A DNA stretch of 64,000 nt from positions 608,001 to 672,000 of the forward strand of contig OZ219786.1 of the NCBI GenBank assembly GCA_964291285.2, given 5' to 3'. The translations under genes were made by a program, and so were the position numbers. Positions 9,601-57,970 of this stretch are shown here, piece by piece. The number at the start of each line of letters is the position of its first letter. The stretch's first letter is position 1. Under the pieces are notes generated by a model. That model had not been told where the DNA came from. It ran no database searches and saw only the letters and a program-made list of their open reading frames with translations. The stretch comes from Alphaproteobacteria bacterium. Its GTDB lineage: Bacteria; Pseudomonadota; Alphaproteobacteria; Bin95.

Positions 9601-11614
9601 CCCGACTTCCGCAACTCGGCTTGAGAATCGACTGATTTGACGGTTTTCCGGCGCGAGAAGTGTCGGATTTCGGTGCAGTACCTCTCGGGACCGGCTTGTA
9701 GTGCCGACCTACCCCCTTGATCGGGCTGGCGAAGATCCGGACGCTGCGCTGATGTTCGTGCGCTGCAAGAGACGCTTCAAGGACGGCAAGGAGCACCGCT
9801 ACTGGAGCGTTGTGGAGAACGTCCGGGTCCACGGCGGTCGGGTTGTTCAGCGTCAGGTGCTCTATCTCGGGGAGATCAACGACAGCCAGCGAGCGGCGTG
9901 GTGCCGCTCGATCGAGGTGGTGGAGGGCAAGTCGCGATCACGGCAGATGGCGCTGTTTCCCGAGGACCGGGAGGCGCCGGCGCTGACTTGCGAAGTGGTG
10001 AAGATCGACCTCTCGCAGGTGGCGCTTCACGACCCGCGCCAGTGGGGGGCGTGCTGGCTGGCGCTGTCCTTGTGGGACCGCCTGGACCTGGACCGCTTCT
10101 GGGAAGAGCGGCTGCCGGCGAGCCGGCAAGGCACGCGGTGGCTGGACATCCTGAAGATCCAGGTCTGCTACCGGCTGATCGACCCGGGCAGCGAGTGGCG
10201 CCTTCACCGTCACTGGTATGAGCACAGCGCGCTTCGCGATCTTCTGGGTGGCGAGCGGGCGATCGCCGACGACACACTCTATCGCTGTCTCGACAAGCTG
10301 CTGGCGCACAAGCAGGGCTTCTTCTCGTTTCTGCGCGACCGCTGGGCGACGCTGTTCGAGGCGCGCTTCGACGTGCTGCTCTACGACCTGACCTCGACCT
10401 ACTTCGAGAGCGATCCGCCGTTCGATGACAAGCGCCGCTTCGGCTACAGCCGGGACAAGCGGCCCGACTGCGTGCAGGTGGTGATCGCCCTGATCGTTAC
10501 GCCGCAGGGCTTTCCGCTGGCCTATGAGGTGATGCCGGGCAACACCTCCGACGACACCACGCTGGCGGCGTTCCTCAAGAAGATCGAGGATCAGTATGGC
10601 CGCTCCGAGCGGGTGTGGATCATGGACCGCGGCATCCCCACCGAGGAGACGCTGGCCGCGATGCGCGAGGGCGAGGCGCCGGTGCGCTACCTGGTGGGCA
10701 CGCCCAAGGGCCGGCTGACGCGGCTCGAGAAGGTGTTCCTGGGCCTGCCCTGGCAGGAGGTGCGCCAGTCCGTGACTGTCAAGCTTCTGGTCGAGGATGG
10801 CGAGCTCTACGTCCTGGTGCGCAGCGAGGGGCGGCAGGTGAAGGAACGCGGCATGCGCCGGCGCCGGCTGAAGAGGCTGTGGCGTCGATTGGCCGAGTTG
10901 CAAGGGCAGTCGAACAGCCGGGATCAGTTGTTGCTCAAGCTCGGCGCCGCCAGGAAGGAGGCCGGCCGGGCCTGGAGCCTGGTCGACATCACCGTGCCCG
11001 GGACCGACAGCGAACTCGCCGCCAACGGCTTCTCATTCCGCCTGCAGCGCGACCGGCTGCGCCAGGTCCGCCGCCGCGAGGGCCGTTACCTGCTGCGATC
11101 CAACATGGTCGCCGAAGACCCCGCCACGCTGTGGCATCTGTACATGCAGCTCGTCGAGATCGAGCAGGCGTTCAAGGAACTCAAGCACGACCTCGCGATC
11201 CGCCCCATCTTCCATCAGCGCCAAGAGCGCATCGAGGCGCATATCTTCGTCTCGTTCATCGCCTACTGCCTGCTGGTGACCCTGAAGAACCTCGCCCGGC
11301 CGCGCGCCCCGGGCCTCACCCCACGCGCCATCCTTGAGGCCTTCGCCACCATCCAGATGGTGGACGTCCATCTGCCAACCACCGACGGCCGGCACCTCGT
11401 CCTGCCGCGCCACACCCGGCCGAACAAGGAGCACGAGCTACTGCTGCAACAGCTCGGCATGACCTGGCCGCAGCAACCCGCACCCCGGATCTCCGCCTGA
11501 CGGCACACGGCGCCGCCTCTCCGTTCGCCGCCTTGTAGTGCCGACCCTCGGGGAGACGATCAAGGCTATTCAATGAGTTAGCATCCTCATGACCCCCGAG
11601 TTGCGGAAGTCGGG
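9601..11614 (+). mobile_element. IS1634-family insertion sequence, copy 1 (2014 bp)
   Basis: Perfect 19-bp terminal inverted repeats CCCGACTTCCGCAACTCGG / CCGAGTTGCGGAAGTCGGG, flanked by TTAG at 9597-9600 and 11615-11618; near-identical to 33086-35099. Confidence 0.95.
9752..11500 (+). CDS. IS1634-family DDE transposase
   Basis: LLYDLTSTYFE, FGYSRDKRPDC.QVVIAL, WIMDRG, Y..L.EIEQAFKELK.DL.IRPIFHQ...RIEAHIFVSF. Confidence 0.92.
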   Translation: MFVRCKRRFKDGKEHRYWSVVENVRVHGGRVVQRQVLYLGEINDSQRAAWCRSIEVVEGKSRSRQMALFPEDREAPALTCEVVKIDLSQVALHDPRQWGACWLALSLWDRLDLDRFWEERLPASRQGTRWLDILKIQVCYRLIDPGSEWRLHRHWYEHSALRDLLGGERAIADDTLYRCLDKLLAHKQGFFSFLRDRWATLFEARFDVLLYDLTSTYFESDPPFDDKRRFGYSRDKRPDCVQVVIALIVTPQGFPLAYEVMPGNTSDDTTLAAFLKKIEDQYGRSERVWIMDRGIPTEETLAAMREGEAPVRYLVGTPKGRLTRLEKVFLGLPWQEVRQSVTVKLLVEDGELYVLVRSEGRQVKERGMRRRRLKRLWRRLAELQGQSNSRDQLLLKLGAARKEAGRAWSLVDITVPGTDSELAANGFSFRLQRDRLRQVRRREGRYLLRSNMVAEDPATLWHLYMQLVEIEQAFKELKHDLAIRPIFHQRQERIEAHIFVSFIAYCLLVTLKNLARPRAPGLTPRAILEAFATIQMVDVHLPTTDGRHLVLPRHTRPNKEHELLLQQLGMTWPQQPAPRISA

Positions 11615-33085: not shown

Positions 33086-35099
33086 CCCGACTTCCGCAAC
33101 TCGGCTTGAGAATCGACTGATTTGACGGTTTTCCGGCGCGAGAAGTGTCGGATTTCGGTGCAGTACCTCTCGGGACCGGCTTGTAGTGCCGACCTACCCC
33201 CTTGATCGGGCTGGCGAAGATCCGGACGCTGCGCTGATGTTCGTGCGCTGCAAGAGACGCTTCAAGGACGGCAAGGAGCACCGCTACTGGAGCGTTGTGG
33301 AGAACGTCCGGGTCCACGGCGGTCGGGTTGTTCAGCGTCAGGTGCTCTATCTCGGGGAGATCAACGACAGCCAGCGAGCGGCGTGGTGCCGCTCGATCGA
33401 GGTGGTGGAGGGCAAGTCGCGATCACGGCAGATGGCGCTGTTTCCCGAGGACCGGGAGGCGCCGGCGCTGACTTGCGAAGTGGTGAAGATCGACCTCTCG
33501 CAGGTGGCGCTTCACGACCCGCGCCAGTGGGGGGCGTGCTGGCTGGCGCTGTCCTTGTGGGACCGCCTGGACCTGGACCGCTTCTGGGAAGAGCGGCTGC
33601 CGGCGAGCCGGCAAGGCACGCGGTGGCTGGACATCCTGAAGATCCAGGTCTGCTACCGGCTGATCGACCCGGGCAGCGAGTGGCGCCTTCACCGTCACTG
33701 GTATGAGCACAGCGCGCTTCGCGATCTTCTGGGTGGCGAGCGGGCGATCGCCGACGACACACTCTATCGCTGTCTCGACAAGCTGCTGGCGCACAAGCAG
33801 GGCTTCTTCTCGTTTCTGCGCGACCGCTGGGCGACGCTGTTCGAGGCGCGCTTCGACGTGCTGCTCTACGACCTGACCTCGACCTACTTCGAGAGCGATC
33901 CGCCGTTCGATGACAAGCGCCGCTTCGGCTACAGCCGGGACAAGCGGCCCGACTGCGTGCAGGTGGTGATCGCCCTGATCGTTACGCCGCAGGGCTTTCC
34001 GCTGGCCTATGAGGTGATGCCGGGCAACACCTCCGACGACACCACGCTGGCGGCGTTCCTCAAGAAGATCGAGGATCAGTATGGCCGCTCCGAGCGGGTG
34101 TGGATCATGGACCGCGGCATCCCCACCGAGGAGACGCTGGCCGCGATGCGCGAGGGCGAGGCGCCGGTGCGCTACCTGGTGGGCACGCCCAAGGGCCGGC
34201 TGACGCGGCTCGAGAAGGTGTTCCTGGGCCTGCCCTGGCAGGAGGTGCGCCAGTCCGTGACTGTCAAGCTTCTGGTCGAGGATGGCGAGCTCTACGTCCT
34301 GGTGCGCAGCGAGGGGCGGCAGGTGAAGGAACGCGGCATGCGCCGGCGCCGGCTGAAGAGGCTGTGGCGTCGATTGGCCGAGTTGCAAGGGCAGTCGAAC
34401 AGCCGGGATCAGTTGTTGCTCAAGCTCGGCGCCGCCAGGAAGGAGGCCGGCCGGGCCTGGAGCCTGGTCGACATCACCGTGCCCGGGACCGACAGCGAAC
34501 TCGCCGCCAACGGCTTCTCATTCCGCCTGCAGCGCGACCGGCTGCGCCAGGTCCGCCGCCGCGAGGGCCGTTACCTGCTGCGATCCAACATGGTCGCCGA
34601 AGACCCCGCCACGCTGTGGCATCTGTACATGCAGCTCGTCGAGATCGAGCAGGCGTTCAAGGAACTCAAGCACGACCTCGCGATCCGCCCCATCTTCCAT
34701 CAGCGCCAAGAGCGCATCGAGGCGCATATCTTCGTCTCGTTCATCGCCTACTGCCTGCTGGTGACCCTGAAGAACCTCGCCCGGCCGCACGCCCCGGGCC
34801 TCACCCCACGCGCCATCCTTGAGGCCTTCGCCACCATCCAGATGGTGGACGTCCATCTGCCAACCACCGACGGCCGGCACCTCGTCCTGCCGCGCCACAC
34901 CCGGCCGAACAAGGAGCACGAGCTACTGCTGCAACAGCTCGGCATGACCTGGCCGCAGCAACCCGCACCCCGGATCTCCGCCTGACGGCACACGGCGCCG
35001 CCTCTCCGTTCGCCGCCTTGTAGTGCCGACCCTCGGGGAGACGATCAAGGCTATTCAATGAGTTAGCATCCTCATGACCCCCGAGTTGCGGAAGTCGGG
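33086..35099 (+). mobile_element. IS1634-family insertion sequence, copy 2 (2014 bp)
   Basis: Same 19-bp IRs; CTAG on both sides (33082-85 and 35100-03). One visible difference from copy 1 (G11304 vs A34789, Arg/His). Confidence 0.95.
33237..34985 (+). CDS. IS1634-family DDE transposase
   Basis: Identical to 9752..11500 except one residue. Confidence 0.92.
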   Translation: MFVRCKRRFKDGKEHRYWSVVENVRVHGGRVVQRQVLYLGEINDSQRAAWCRSIEVVEGKSRSRQMALFPEDREAPALTCEVVKIDLSQVALHDPRQWGACWLALSLWDRLDLDRFWEERLPASRQGTRWLDILKIQVCYRLIDPGSEWRLHRHWYEHSALRDLLGGERAIADDTLYRCLDKLLAHKQGFFSFLRDRWATLFEARFDVLLYDLTSTYFESDPPFDDKRRFGYSRDKRPDCVQVVIALIVTPQGFPLAYEVMPGNTSDDTTLAAFLKKIEDQYGRSERVWIMDRGIPTEETLAAMREGEAPVRYLVGTPKGRLTRLEKVFLGLPWQEVRQSVTVKLLVEDGELYVLVRSEGRQVKERGMRRRRLKRLWRRLAELQGQSNSRDQLLLKLGAARKEAGRAWSLVDITVPGTDSELAANGFSFRLQRDRLRQVRRREGRYLLRSNMVAEDPATLWHLYMQLVEIEQAFKELKHDLAIRPIFHQRQERIEAHIFVSFIAYCLLVTLKNLARPHAPGLTPRAILEAFATIQMVDVHLPTTDGRHLVLPRHTRPNKEHELLLQQLGMTWPQQPAPRISA

Positions 35100-36929
35100 C
35101 TAGGAGAAGAGGAGTTTGGCAGACTGTATACCGGCGTCGTCCTGGAGATGTCGCCGCTGCCGGGCTTCCGGCCCGGCCGGGGGAAGCCGGGTCTGCAGCG
35201 TCTGCTCTGGCCCTGGCTGCGCGGATTCGGCGATCCGCTCGCATATGCGGGCGCCTGCGGGTTGCTCCTTGCGCTGCCGGGGATCGCCATTCCGTTGCTG
35301 CTCGCGGGCTTCGTCGACTACACACTCGAAGGTGGCGAGCAGGCTTGGGGCGCGGTGTTCGTCGGCGCGATGCTGGTGGCGTCCGCGCTCTTGTATGCGC
35401 TCACATGGTTGCAGCAACGCTGTTTGCATCGCCTGACCCTGCATGTCTCCGTGGAGCAGGCGGATCGCTTCGTCACGCGGCTCCTGCAACTCCCGATCGA
35501 CTACTTCTCGCGCCGCCAGCCCGGTGACATAGTGGCTCGCTTGAAGTCCATCGACGAGACGGCGGCCACGGCGTCGAGGGAACTTGTGGCGCTCTGCATC
35601 GAGCTGGCGATGAGTGCGCTCTTTCTTGTTCTGATGTTTGCGATGGACGGCTTGCTGGCGGCCATGGTGGCCACGCTGGCCGTCATGTGCGTGGCTCTGA
35701 TGCGCCTGCTTTCGCGATATCGAGTGGACACCAATCAGATCTGGAGCAAGGAGAAGGGCCAGCTACACGGCATCGAGATGGAGAACATCGGGCGAATCGA
35801 CTCCGCTCACGTCAAGGCACAGGAACACGATTGCCTCGCCCGGATGGGCGGGCACCAGGCGCGCGAGGTAGTCGCCCGACAACGGGTCTTCGCGCTCGGT
35901 CAAGTGATCGCGTCGTTCCCCGCGCTGTTCCAGGTGCTGGGCAGCGCGCTCGTACTGGGCTTCGGCGGCTGGCGCGTCATGGTCGGCGACATGAGTCCTG
36001 GTCTTCTGATGGGGTTCTTCCTCGTGGCGGAGAACTTTCTGCGCCCGGTGGCCCGCTTTGTGGAGTTCGCTGATCGGATGCGCGTTCTCGAAGCCGGCCT
36101 CCTGCGCGTACGCGATATCGCAGACGCCGCGCCTGACGAGGGCCAGACAACATTGCAGGACGGCACGGCTGCCCGGACGATTTCCACGATCGACGGCCGC
36201 CTGCGGACGGTCGGCCGCGTTCGCTTCGAGGACGTTACCTTCGGATACCGTCGCGGCGTGCCTCTCATCGAGAATTTCAGCCTGTCCGTCGAACCCGGCC
36301 AGCGGGTGGCCATCGTCGGGTCGAGCGGCTCCGGCAAGTCGACACTCGCCGGATTGCTCGCCGGCCTCAACCGGCCGTGGTCGGGACGCATCCTGCTCGA
36401 CGGCCATCCGCATGCCGACATTCCCAACCCCGTCCTGACCCGGTCCGTGGCAATCGTGGAGCAGCGCATCCAGCTCTTCGAGGGCAGCATTCGCGACAAC
36501 CTGACCATGTGGGACCCGACCGTGGCGGACGAAGCCATCATGGCGGCCGCCCGCGATGCGGCGATACACGACGAAATCATGGCCCGCGCAGATGGCTACG
36601 ATGCGCGTGTCGCCGAGGGAGGGCACAACTTCAGCGGCGGCCAGCGTCAACGGCTGGAAATCGCCCGCGCCCTCGTCAGCGACCCGTCCGTGTTGATCCT
36701 CGACGAAGCAACGGCGTCCCTGGATCCTGTGGTCGAACTGCGGGTGGACGACGCGTTGCGCCGTCGCGGCTGTACTTGCTTCATCGTCGCCCACCGTCTC
36801 AGCACGATCCGCGACGCCGACCTGATCGTTGTGCTCGAAAGCGGCAGGGAGGTGAAGCGCGGCTCCCACGAGCAACTGCTAGCCGAGCCCGGCGGCGCCT
36901 ACGGACGCCTGTTGGAGAGCGCGTCGTGA
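35100..36929 (+). pseudogene. NHLP bacteriocin export ABC transporter (peptidase/permease/ATPase type) missing most of its C39 peptidase domain
   Basis: The frame opens at the IS end with LGEEEFGRLYTGVVLEM, the tail of a C39 domain. Then an ABC membrane domain, GSSGSGKST, FEGSIRDNLTMWD, NFSGGQRQRLEIARAL, LRRRGCTC.IVAHRLSTIRD (TIGR03796-like). Confidence 0.82.
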
Positions 36930-39900
36930 CGACGGCCAGGCCACGGGACGACGCCGTTGCCGTCGTCGACGCATTTCGGGAGCGGGCGACGGGAGCGGGC
37001 GAACCGGTCCGCGGCGGCGCCAACAGGATGGTCGTCCTCGACGACGCGAACGTTGTCTGGTTCGTCGAGAGCGGCTCGCTGGACGTCTTCGTTGTCGAGT
37101 ACCACGAGGCCGATGCCGCTCTTAGCGCGTCGAGACTCAAGCACGTGTTCCGGGCGGGGCCGGGAGAAGTTGCGTTCGCCTTCCTGCCCACCGAGTCCGC
37201 GTTGCGGCTCGTCGCAAAGGGTTCGGCGGACGCCCGACTGCGCCGGGTACCGGTCTCGGCCTTGCTCGACAAGGAATTTGTCAACGCGCTGTCCGGGCGA
37301 GTGGATGTGTGGGTGACGGCGCTCTGCGCGGCGGTCGTGCGCGACATCACGCTGCGCCCACGGATCGCCCGGCGCATCGAAGCTCCCGGCGAGGTGGAAC
37401 TGCCGGCGGGAGCCGTCGTGGCCGCCCGGCGCGGCGTGGCATGGATCACCTTGCCGGAAGACGGCGGAGGGGCAGCGTATCTGGACACCGAAGCGCTCGA
37501 CGGAGAGGGCCTCACGTTCGCCCCCGTTACCCGGGAAGCGTGGCTACGGCTCGGGGATCCGATCGCGCTGCCATGCGCCACCACCGAACAACTGCTGAGC
37601 AGCGGGGCTCTGTCGCGGGCTCTGGCGGATTTCCACTGTCTGATCGCGCGCGCCGAACTGTTCAACCGCCAACTGCTGTTGGCCGACGTGGCTCAGGCGC
37701 AGATGGAGTCGCGTCGCCATCAGCTTGCCAGCGAGCATGGTGCCCGGCGTGGCCTTGCCGGCCTCCTCCGACACGGTGCCGGCTGGCTGCGCGCGCGGGC
37801 GGATGCGGTTCCCGACGGTCGGCAAAGCGCGTTGGCGGCGGCACTCGCCGCCATCGGCGAGTGGGATGACATTCGATTTCGCGAACCCCGCACCGAGGGG
37901 CGGGACTCCGACACGATGCCGATGCTCGATGACATTCTGCACGCTTCCGGCGTGCGCGGCCGACGTGTCACACTGGCGGTCGAGGATCGCTGGTGGCGTG
38001 GCGACAGCGGCGCCCTGTTGGGGTTCCTGCGCGAGGGCGACGAGCCGGTGGCGCTGCTGCCGGGGCGGACGGGCGGCTACCGCATGGTGACTCATCGCGG
38101 TACCCGACGCATCGATGCCGCCGGGGCGCGGTTGCTCCACCCGCATGCGTGGACATTCCTTCGATCTTTGCCCGATGAGCGCAAGGCCACCGGCGGCGAT
38201 CTTCTGCGCACTGCCGGGACGCGTTTGGGCCTCGACCTGCTCCGCGTCTCACTGCTCGGCTTGGTAGTCGGCATGGTGTTGCTGGCTCCGGCTGTCGTGT
38301 TCGGCTTGCTGACCGACCACTTCATCCCCGCCGGCGCCGCTAGCGCGCTGCTGCAGTTGACCGCGCTGCTCGTCGTGCTGGGCGCGGCTGGCGCGGTGCT
38401 GCAAATTCTTCAGGGCACGACGATGCTGAAGCTGGAGGCGCGCATCGCCCTGCACCTCGATGCGGCGATTCAGGACCGAATGTACAAGCTGCCGCCGGCT
38501 TTCATGCGCAGATTCACAACCGGCGACCTCGCCATGCGTGCGTCCTCCTTCCGCACCCTTCGCGATCGTGTCTCGGGCATGATCCTGCAATCCCTGCTGT
38601 CCGCGGTCTTTCTGCTGCCCACATTCCTGTTCCTGTTCTTCTACGACATCGCCATGGGCTGGATCGGTCTGGCCCTGGGGGCGACCGTCCTAGCGCTCGG
38701 CGCCGTGCTCGGGTTCAGGCAGATCGAGCCTCAGCGTCGCTGGTTCGACGCGTCACGGGAGGTGGCGAGCGTACTGCGGCAGTTCCTGAACAGCATGGGA
38801 AAACTGCGAACCACCGGAGCCCAGGCGAGCGCATACACAATCTGGGCGCAACGATACCGGGAGCAGCAACGAGCGTTTGTCGACATCGGCACTTTCGACC
38901 ATCACCTGGTGGCGCTCGGCGTCGCGGCACCCGCATTCGCGGGGACGGTGCTTCTCTGGGCCGCGTGGACGCATTTCGATGGCACCACCGGTGACTTTCT
39001 CGCCATCTTTACTGCATTCATGGTCTTCAATCTGGCGATCACCCGGCTGGCAAATTCCTTCTCCGCGCTTGCCGGCGTCTGGCCGGGCGTGGACCAGGTG
39101 CGCCCGCTGCTGGAGCAGCAGCCGGACCCTCGTCTGGTGAGCGCCGAAACAACGAGCGGCAATGGCCGCGGCACGGTCGGCGGCGCGAGGAGCCGCAGCC
39201 GGCTCGCGCGATACGCGAACGCTGCGCCGGATTCCGAACCGGACACATCCACGAGAAGAGATATCGAGATCAGAGGCGGAATCGGTATCCACCACGTAAT
39301 ACCAACGGTCGTTGATTGGAACCGATAGCAGATCCTCCCTCCGCAGCTCGCCCCCTGAGCCGAGGCCTCCTACTGCAAGAGGTAATCTCCGCCGAGAGAG
39401 GCTAATCGGTTCTTATCTGTGGCCGGTGGTATAAGCTGGGGCTATGACGATGGGCCGCTGGTGCTCGAGGATGTGTCGCTGCATGCCGACCCCGGCGAGT
39501 TCATCGCCATCGTCGGCGGATCGGGCGCCGGCAAGAGCACCTTGCTGCGTCTGGCGCTCGGTCTGGCACGGCCGACATCGGGTTTCGTCAGCTATGACGG
39601 CCGGGATCTGGAGCATCTGGATGCGGTGTCGATACGGCGGCAAATCTCGGTCGTGCTGCAGGACGGCGACCTGCCGGAAGGCTCGGTGGAGGACGCGATT
39701 CTCGGGGTCTCGAACAGTCTCACCATCAACGACGCCTGGCAGGCGGCCCGCCTCGCGGCCGTCAGCGACGATATCGCCGCCATGCCGATGGGCATGCACA
39801 CCGTGATCGGATCCAGCGGGACAACGCTGTCCGGCGGCCAGGTTCAGCGCATCCAGATCGCCGCAGCGTTGGTGCGCAACCCCCACATCCTGATTCTCGA

Positions 39901-40126
39901 CGAAGCGACCAACTGGCTGGACAACCGGAAGCAGGCCGAGGTGATGCACAACATCGAACATCTGGAAATCACCCGCATCGTGGTAGCCCATCGGATGTCC
40001 ACGATTCGCCATGCCGACCGCATCTACGTACTTGAAGCGGGCAAGGTCGTTCAGCAGGGTTCCTATGGCGCCCTGGCCGACCGGGAGGGAACCTTTCGCG
40101 ATCTGATCCGGCGCCAGCTCGCTTGA
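36926..40126 (+). pseudogene. NHLM bacteriocin system ABC transporter ATP-binding protein, interrupted by the 132-bp element
   Basis: GTGA overlap with the previous gene; VWFVESGSLDVF, R.R.V.L....WW..DSG.LLGF...PVALLP (TIGR03797-like). The ATPase part (GGSGAGKST, LSGGQ, LDEAT) continues in the same frame after the insertion. Confidence 0.85.
39300..39431 (+). mobile_element. 132-bp MITE-like structured element, copy A
   Basis: TACC...GGTA ends with imperfect 27-bp terminal IRs; TAA duplication at 39297-99 and 39432-34; 130/132 identical to the reverse complement of 57495-57626. Confidence 0.92.
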
Positions 40127-56713: not shown

Positions 56714-57290
56714 GCGCAGCCACGCGGGCCTGCAATTCGGGCACGACCTCCGCCTCGAACCAGGGGTTCAGTTTCAGCCAGTTGTTCACCCGCCAGCTCG
56801 GATGCGGGATCGGCAGGAAGTCGGGCAGGTAGCCGCGCCACGCCGCCACGGTCTCGCCGAGCGTCTGTCTGCGCCGCTTCCCGAGATAGCGGGCCTGGGC
56901 GTAGGCGCCGGCCAGCACGGTGAGTTCCACTGCCGGGAGTTCGGCGCGCAGGCGCGGATGCCAGAGCGGCGCGCATTCCGGGCGGGGCGGAGCGTCGCCG
57001 CCACGCGGCAGCCGGCCCGGATAGCAGAAGCCCATCGGCAGGATGGCCACCCGGCTTGCATCGTAGAAGTCCTCGGGCGCGAGGCCGAGCCAGGCGCGCA
57101 GCCGCCTACCGCTTGCATCGTCCCAGGGCACGCCGCTCGCATGGACCTTCGTGCCGGGCGCCTGGCCGACGATCATCAACCGTGCGGCCGTTTCGGCCCG
57201 CAGCACCGGCCGGGGGCCGAGCGGCAGACGGTCGGCGCAATGCGTGCAACCGCGCACCTCCGCCAGAAGCGCCTCAAGCCGCGTGCTCAC
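56667..57290 (-). CDS. Uracil-DNA glycosylase family protein
   Basis: C..C, GQAPG..VH.SG.PWDD.SG.RLR.WL, FCYPG, PP.PEC, PHPSWR. Confidence 0.88.
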   Translation of the reverse strand: MSTRLEALLAEVRGCTHCADRLPLGPRPVLRAETAARLMIVGQAPGTKVHASGVPWDDASGRRLRAWLGLAPEDFYDASRVAILPMGFCYPGRLPRGGDAPPRPECAPLWHPRLRAELPAVELTVLAGAYAQARYLGKRRRQTLGETVAAWRGYLPDFLPIPHPSWRVNNWLKLNPWFEAEVVPELQARVAALTSPSSPRPPTGSSR

Positions 57291-57970
57291 GGCGCGAAGG
57301 CCTCGCCGCCGAAGGGATAGCGGACTTCCTCGCGATAGACCGGCGCCGCGCCGCCGAGCCGGCTCGACATGAGCGAGAAGCCGTCCACGGCGAAGGCCGG
57401 CAGGCGGAACGCGCCACGGTCCCCAAGCCAGGCTGCGACGGCGGCCGGGCGCGCGCCGGCCGTGCGGGCAAGGGTTATGTGCGGCGTGAACTTATACCAC
57501 CGGCCACAGATAAGAACCGATTAGCCTCTCTCGGCGGAGATTACCTCTTGCAGTAGGAGGCCTCGGCTCAGGGGGCGAGCTGCGGAGGGAGGCTCTGCTA
57601 TAGGTTCCAATCAACGACCGTTGGTATTACGCTCTTCCGCGGGAAGGCCGGCACGGACGAGCGCCGATTCGACGCGTCGCCTGAGCGCGGTCAGCGGCGC
57701 CGAGCCGGCGACCCCCGCCCAGACCGCCCGTGGCCGCGCACCCCCGAAGCTGCCCAGCGACTCGATGGCGAGCTCGAATTTCTCGCTGCCGACATGGCTG
57801 AGCGCGTCCGCCAGCTCCTCGGCAAAGCCCCGATCCACCTCGCCGATGAAGCGCAGCGTCAGGTGGTAGTTCTCCTCCGGCGACCAGCGCGCGCCGGGAA
57901 GGCCGCCCGCGAGTCCGGCAAGCTGCCGGCGGATGTCCTCCGGCAGGAGTATCGTGGCGAAGAGGCGCAA
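57287..57970 (-). pseudogene. thpR: RNA 2',3'-cyclic phosphodiesterase (2'-5' RNA ligase family) interrupted by the 132-bp element
   Basis: MRLF..., first HxT motif (YHLTLRFIG) before the insertion. Removing the insertion restores EERKFTPHITLAR (second HxT) and an open frame to TGA at 57287. Confidence 0.9.
57495..57626 (-). mobile_element. 132-bp MITE-like structured element, copy B
   Basis: Reverse complement of copy A with 2 substitutions; TTA (TAA on minus) at 57492-94 and 57627-29. Confidence 0.92.

Follow-up and report, generated by a model that had tools for sequence, protein, structure and literature searches.

An IS630-type MITE of 132 bp with a TNA target duplication in an IS-crowded alphaproteobacterial genome

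The 132-bp unit and the two genes that it interrupts

The window analysed here is a stretch of 64,000 nucleotides (contig C2:608001-672000) of a 6.1-Mb genome with 68% G+C in 5 contigs. It contains a non-coding unit of 132 bp (TACCAACGG...CCGGTGGTA) at positions 39300-39431 on the forward strand and, reverse-complemented, at positions 57495-57626, and the locus raises the questions of whether this unit is a mobile element, whether it still moves and which enzyme would move it. An earlier note, made from the sequence alone, had proposed a non-autonomous MITE family that inserts into genes at CG^TAA^G and is mobilised in trans, perhaps by a TA/TNA-targeting IS630- or IS5-like enzyme. Direct reading bore out that the two copies are alike except at positions 25 and 34 of the unit, that both carry a TAA duplication and that the reconstructed empty sites of both read CGTAAG; the span 39297-39434 given there for copy A comprises the element itself (39300-39431) plus both TAA repeats. 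The features are as follows.

39300..39431, + strand: MITE copy A (132 bp), a member of the G25/T34 subfamily
39297..39299: TAA repeat to the left of copy A (target-site duplication)
39432..39434: TAA repeat to the right of copy A (target-site duplication); public-run contigs pass directly from 39296 to 39432
39300..39329, + strand: left terminal inverted repeat of copy A (TACCAACGG...GAACCGAT...), sharing 20/30 and 19/30 positions with the two ends of a resident 1167-bp IS630 element
39402..39431, - strand: right terminal inverted repeat of copy A, sharing 23/30 positions with one end of the 1167-bp IS630 element
57495..57626, - strand: MITE copy B (132 bp), with no difference from the family consensus
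57627..57629: TAA repeat of copy B (target-site duplication), lying upstream of it on the - strand
57492..57494: TAA repeat of copy B (target-site duplication), lying downstream of it on the - strand
36377..39296, + strand: upstream part of an NHLP-type bacteriocin export ABC transporter gene, membrane domain (ABC_membrane; TIGR03797 positions 2-440)
39435..40126, + strand: downstream part of the same NHLP-type ABC transporter gene, ATPase domain (ABC_tran, 110 bits; TIGR03797 positions 461-686)
57630..57970, - strand: N-terminal part of thpR/ligT (RNA 2',3'-cyclic phosphodiesterase), LigT_PEase, 113 residues (TIGR02258 positions 1-118, 103 bits)
57287..57493, - strand: C-terminal part of thpR (KFTPHITLAR... 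to stop)

Copy A was located between the membrane and the ATPase domains of one NHLP-type ABC exporter gene. The upstream ORF (36377-39328) runs into the copy and, after 9 codons in it, stops at a TAG (39326-39328), and the unit has no ORF of its own; removal of 135 bp, which had been expected to restore the gene, did bring it back in frame, the downstream part continuing the same frame. Copy A interrupts, and has inactivated, the bacteriocin ABC exporter gene, as copy B has thpR. The MITE accounts for two broken genes in the window and adds an element mobile at present to a chromosome already loaded with ISs, knowledge that helps in annotation and in deciding which gene losses are recent.

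Searching the whole genome for the unit, the check that the earlier note had called for, revealed 28 full-length copies at 86-100% identity, a number that makes the repeat real and far beyond chance. They fell into age classes: 14 copies were identical to the consensus, two subfamilies of 5 copies each were 2 bases off the consensus, and 4 old copies had 10-17 differences from it. One further copy was split by another IS (C2:1295778-1297854). The two ends of the unit are identical to each other at 19/30 positions, forming imperfect terminal inverted repeats of about 30 bp; they start with TACCA and have a GAACCGAT box about 20 bp inward from each tip. The unit therefore has the traits by which a MITE is recognised, namely small size with no transposase gene, inverted ends, a target duplication with empty sites, and near-identical multiple copies. 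No IS in the source genome matched its interior, and a distant blastn comparison with 72,556 plasmid records gave no match.

A structured RNA gene, a REP-like regulatory repeat or a small intron could also give a compact repeat of this kind, and the unit did fold better than shuffled controls (z of -2.5 as DNA and about -3 as RNA). However, the long hairpin is essentially the pairing of the two imperfect inverted ends, and compensatory changes were found in 0/35 predicted pairs among 26 sequences from three genomes. The Rfam search gave three weak matches of chance level, the best (a miRNA model) reaching 20 bits where the gathering score is 44, and no promoter-like or terminator-like sites were found in copy A. 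Target duplications and empty sites, moreover, are traits of a transposon, and an RNA or regulatory repeat is considered highly improbable. With plasmid records and Rfam as the reference, the unit represents a real MITE family of the IS630 type that had not been named before.

Target site and recent movement

The left flank was TNA in all 28 copies and the same triplet was present on the right in 26, the other two being old copies, identical to each other, whose right end has decayed. When copies sharing both flanks were collapsed, 24 distinct sites were obtained, 23 of which had a matched 3-bp TNA duplication. The triplets over these sites were TTA (9), TAA (6), TCA (5) and TGA (4), preceded by G or C at 24/24 sites and followed by G or C at 20/24. 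The target of the MITE is therefore S-TNA-S; CGTAAG, correct for copies A and B, represents two instances thereof and does not hold as a general target. The middle base differs from site to site but agrees between left and right at 23/24 sites, so that the duplication spans 3 bp and is not the 2-bp TA that is classical for IS630/Tc1/mariner elements.

The general statement that the family inserts into genes was not upheld. At least one flank was itself repeated in 14/28 copies, so that these copies sit in or beside other ISs (one of them was found inside a resident 1225-bp IS630 element), and a high-GC3 ORF crossed only about five of the single-copy sites. The MITE has no preference for genes, many copies being in ISs or probably between genes. 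The idea that TNA insertion targets stop codons, suggested by a 419-aa ORF ending at the TAA of copy B, was dropped, since Pfam gave no hit for this ORF and the true gene there, thpR, lies in a different frame.

The expectation that one copy lies in an island and the other in the core genome was supported by comparison with 16 congeneric genomes. The thpR locus was present in all of them (16/16), with its flanks abutting without an insert in each, and the site of copy B, read directly in 8 congeners, was CGTAA in 3 and CGCAA in 5. No ortholog of the ABC gene carrying copy A was found in the 16 congeners, consistent with an accessory region.

For site A, an empty form was found in public sequencing runs. 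In 3/3 runs, all under one organism label (organism A), contigs of 4.3-10.4 kb went straight from 39296 to 39432 and so lacked precisely 135 bp, 3 bases being ambiguous. An empty allele therefore exists in nature, while the assembly carries the insert; being contigs, these data show that this allele exists and give no allele proportions. No contig bridging the flank into the MITE at site A was present among the contigs listed from the public runs. Among the runs with a small share of words (X4-X13), contigs of X4 were 85-95% identical on the flanks and on stretches of the ATPase domain, and none joined across site A. Among the public runs listed for the locus, none was an RNA data set.

The crossing of site A by all three runs without the 135 bp is also what would be seen if the insert at 39297-39431 were an assembly artefact, as the earlier note had allowed for. 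However, copy A has the same exact ends and perfect 3-bp duplication as the other copies, which misassembly does not yield, and De Bruijn contigs break at multicopy repeats and keep the unique path, so that a filled allele could be present in the runs yet unseen. Hence an artefact is regarded as extremely improbable.

In another reading, the parent IS has been lost and the family no longer moves, the identical copies having arisen by duplication of larger segments or by gene conversion and not by transposition. It would fit with the absence from the genome of an IS with near-identical ends, with four copy pairs that share both flanks and therefore lie in larger repeats, and with the repeated flanks of half the copies. 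The 24 distinct sites, each with its own TNA duplication, argue against an immobile family, as does the empty site A in the three public runs versus the insert in the assembly; and the 14 identical copies lie mostly in different sequence contexts, contrary to segment duplication. We consider an immobile family very unlikely. The 14 identical copies together with the empty form of site A bear out the recent movement that had been supposed and, with the uninterrupted thpR locus of the congeners, point to MITE activity that is current or very recent.

Candidate sources of the transposase

The genome is crowded with ISs, having 32 DDE_3 matches and 263 first-look DDE_Tnp_1 candidates, 150 of which were scored. 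None of the DDE_3 matches placed an IS630 transposase within the window, in line with the earlier observation that a cognate transposase is absent there, and no DDE_Tnp_4 (Harbinger-like) transposases were found in the genome. Two IS630 elements with TACCA-type ends, as had been sought, are resident elsewhere. One, of 1225 bp with ends TACCAAGCGCGG...TTGCGGTTGGTA, encodes a 357-aa transposase whose score for NF033545 ('IS630 family transposase', cut-off 100) is 222 bits; at its 8 full copies, 16/16 flanking triplets were TNA, with a matched pair at 5/8. The other, of 1167 bp with ends TACCAGCGG...CCGCTGGTA, has two overlapping ORFs and a DDE_3 domain of 91.9 bits, and matched TNA duplications were present at 8/10 of its full copies. 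Both share the TACCA...TGGTA tips with the MITE. A third TNA-duplicating element is a 931-bp IS5-like IS (IS1031/IS427-like) in at least 10 copies, with a DDE_Tnp_1 domain of 131 bits. Comparison of the first 30 bases, for which about 8.5/30 identities are expected from base composition, gave the following values for the MITE ends.

Against the 1167-bp IS630 element: 19-23 of 30 identical
Against the 1225-bp IS630 element: 13-18 of 30 identical
Against the 931-bp IS5-like IS: 5-8 of 24 identical, which is chance level

The TACCA tip was common to all IS630-type ends, as was a GA(A)CCNAT-like box spanning positions 20-27. These matches favour the IS630 side of the earlier proposal. A mover of the IS5 family, that is, the 931-bp element, would also explain the 3-bp TNA duplication, as its copies carry matched TNA duplications and its DDE_Tnp_1 domain is well recognised, but its ends (GAGCCTGAC...) are unrelated to those of the MITE, its transposase is of a different family, and the tip TACCA of the MITE is that of the IS630 elements. 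It is therefore very unlikely that this element moves the MITE.

Fuzzy end searches and two scans of the source genome for TNA-flanked inverted-repeat elements revealed no autonomous element with near-identical ends, and no full-length element in that genome had ends nearer to the MITE than 23/30. The nearest terminal matches (TACCAACGGTCATTGA...) came from a truncated copy of an IS630 element next to parB (C1:611454-611966), as well as from other mini-elements. The split copy at C2:1295778-1297854, considered as a parent, turned out to be the MITE interrupted by an IS4/IS1634-like IS of about 1.9 kb with an 8-bp duplication.

From the resemblance of the ends, the MITE is assigned to the IS630 family and is probably cut out and pasted by an IS630-type DDE transposase that another locus of the genome provides in trans. 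The 1167-bp element is somewhat favoured as the most likely transposase source, the resident 1225-bp IS630 element being the alternative. It is highly probable, as the best explanation as a whole, that an IS630 (Tc1/mariner-type) MITE mobilised in trans has inactivated the bacteriocin exporter gene and thpR in the window. A DDE transposase made elsewhere in the genome would recognise the TACCA-tipped ends of about 30 bp with their GAACCGAT box, excise the MITE and insert it at a TNA triplet that has G/C on either side; filling in of the 3-nt staggered cut would then generate the TNA duplication. The acting transposase and the cut-and-paste chemistry are the conditional parts of this scheme, and the latter is adopted because it is established for IS630/Tc1 enzymes. 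Two points were counted on the other side: the ends match any full-length element at 23/30 or fewer positions, and TA is given as the textbook IS630 duplication in excerpts of PMC7386202.

Named relatives and distribution among genomes

Using tblastn against plasmid records, the nearest named elements were ISAli3 and ISAzs14, with transposases 47-50% identical to that of the 1225-bp element. ISAli3 of Azospirillum lipoferum 4B has ends TACCAGCGG...GCCGCTGGTA and duplications TGA, TTA and TTA at 3/3 copies, and ISAzs14 of Azospirillum sp. B510 has ends TACCAGAGCC...GGCTTTGGTA and duplications TCA and TTA at 2/2 copies. Both have TACCAG...CTGGTA tips, of which the MITE shares TACCA, and, like the MITE, a 3-bp TNA duplication; unlike it, they are autonomous, about 1.17-1.18 kb long with a transposase gene, so that only the terminal architecture is common. 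Judged by this architecture, the 132-bp unit can be classified as a non-autonomous member of the ISAli3/ISAzs14-type IS630 lineage. These two relatives reveal that a TACCA-tipped, TNA-duplicating lineage has already been catalogued by name and that TA is not universal in the family. The MITE, which the earlier note did not recognise, indeed had no match in Rfam or plasmid records, but its novelty is lowered by belonging to this catalogued subgroup.

RUP of Streptococcus pneumoniae, Nezha of cyanobacteria and Correia of Neisseria are bacterial IS630-derived MITEs and, together with MITEEc1, duplicate TA. The 132-bp unit is similar to such MITEs in being short, non-coding and multicopy, with IS630-like inverted ends and movement in trans, whereas it differs from these four in its TNA duplication. 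MITEEc1 is filed under IS630 in ISfinder, as cited in excerpts of bioRxiv 10.1101/2024.01.18.576219. In the literature searched on IS630, MITEs and target duplications, no stated TNA duplication for bacterial IS630 was found. Among eukaryotic elements, Zator has a 3-bp duplication. Excerpts of PMC7386202 give TA as the classical duplication of the IS630-Tc1-mariner superfamily and TAA as the duplication of the fungal Fot elements (pogo superfamily). Fot and Zator share with the MITE the transposase superfamily and a 3-bp duplication of the T...A type instead of TA, but they are eukaryotic and belong to different clades. The present family is thus a clean example of an IS630 lineage duplicating TNA rather than TA, the mechanism itself not being new.

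The exact 132-bp family was found only in the source genome (G000) among the 60 relatives searched. Shorter matches to the first 24-70 bases were present in 11/16 congeners, and five loci that were read through both ends (G004, G008, G009, G012, G015) contained related MITEs, 110-230 bp long, that have these same ends. An exact-match scan of 185,579 species genomes with the 24-base left end revealed three other genomes (G061, G062 and G063), of which G063 is the same as G012 and carries a different MITE. G062 had 5 copies, up to 97% identical. G061, a 6-Mb single-chromosome MAG deposited as Candidatus Binatia, had at least 30 copies at 77-92% identity; among the 18 that were fetched, both ends were recognised in 15, and matched TNA duplications were present in 11 of these 15.

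The RpoB of a congener was 94% identical to that of the source genome, against 71% in G062 and 59% in G061. For the 1167-bp IS, identity was 98.4% in G062 and 79-85% in G061, where it has a deletion; in congeners its full-length copies reached at most 88% identity, with partial matches up to 93%. In addition, the three runs in which the locus of the window is present also contained, as loose ends, MITE variants typical of G061. These sequence comparisons suggest that the IS and the MITE may have been exchanged horizontally between unrelated bacteria of a shared habitat, no direction being implied. The wider proposal, that an active IS630-type transposase/MITE pair is being exchanged between unrelated bacteria of the same samples, and that it would represent a TNA-specific bacterial IS630 lineage, the prokaryotic counterpart of the 3-bp-duplicating eukaryotic relatives, is put forward tentatively, with slightly less than even confidence. 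We regard the TNA duplication in place of TA and the sharing across distant lineages as being of moderate interest. Excerpts of a survey describe prokaryotic MITEs as largely genus-specific (bioRxiv 10.1101/2024.01.18.576219), whereas the present MITE family is common to very distant bacteria.

Target site and coding context of the two copies in the window

Examination of the thpR site, which is split by copy B of the 132-bp MITE in the source genome (G000), in eight congeners (loci L064-L071) revealed CGCAAG in five and CGTAA in three, indicating that the TAA target in G000 reflects a silent difference at the third position of an arginine codon. In copy A, which splits the NHLP-type bacteriocin ABC exporter gene, a GTG located within the right end of the MITE shares its reading frame with the ATPase domain encoded downstream, giving a 235-aa ORF (window 39419-40126, + strand). 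Since a scan of copy A for promoter-like sites found none, re-initiation at this GTG would be only a formal possibility.

Insertion-sequence load

The IS load of G000 is extreme: the whole genome had 32 DDE_3 matches and 263 first-look DDE_Tnp_1 candidates, 150 of which were scored, and one sequence flanking MITE copies was present 49 times. The earlier note had referred to IS1634 inverted repeats, in agreement with two copies of an IS1634-like transposase domain found in the window:

Window 10379-11272 (C2:618379-619272), DDE_Tnp_1 domain of a 619-aa IS1634-like transposase
Window 33864-34757 (C2:641864-642757), DDE_Tnp_1 domain of a 619-aa IS1634-like transposase

Nested elements and possible exchange between MITE copies

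Outside the window, a MITE copy (G000:C2:1295778-1297854) was split by an IS of the IS4/IS1634-like type, about 1.9 kb long, which encoded a 513-aa transposase and was flanked by an 8-bp duplication, ATAGCAGA. The 1225-bp IS630 element also hosts other elements (G000:C4:681073-682445 and G000:C2:388048-390206), one copy containing a MITE copy and another a 931-bp IS5-like IS.

Comparison of flanks revealed that 1) the MITE copies at G000:C1:119556 and C1:1111839 had one flank in common and the other different, and 2) the pairs C5:402268 and C3:84957, and C5:265161 and C2:1147238, had identical flanks but different MITE subfamily variants. The half-shared flanks and the differing variants each suggest recombination or gene conversion, either between MITE copies or between the ISs that host them.

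Other TNA-flanked repeats and relics

The 931-bp IS5-like IS (e.g. C1:405533-406463; ends, GAGCCTGAC) also makes TNA duplications, matched at 10 copies in G000; this triplet is therefore the target of two transposase families in G000 that are not related to each other. An 828-bp repeat present in four copies (e.g. C3:1434990-1435817), with inverted ends CGATGGCGTC, had TNA flanks as well.

A truncated IS630 copy with an end reading TACCAACGGTCATTGA was located beside parB (G000:C1:611454-611966), and its tip was shared by mini-elements of 66 bp (C1:615526-615591) and about 112 bp (C3:1279847-1279960); the three are remnants of further IS630/MITE lineages.
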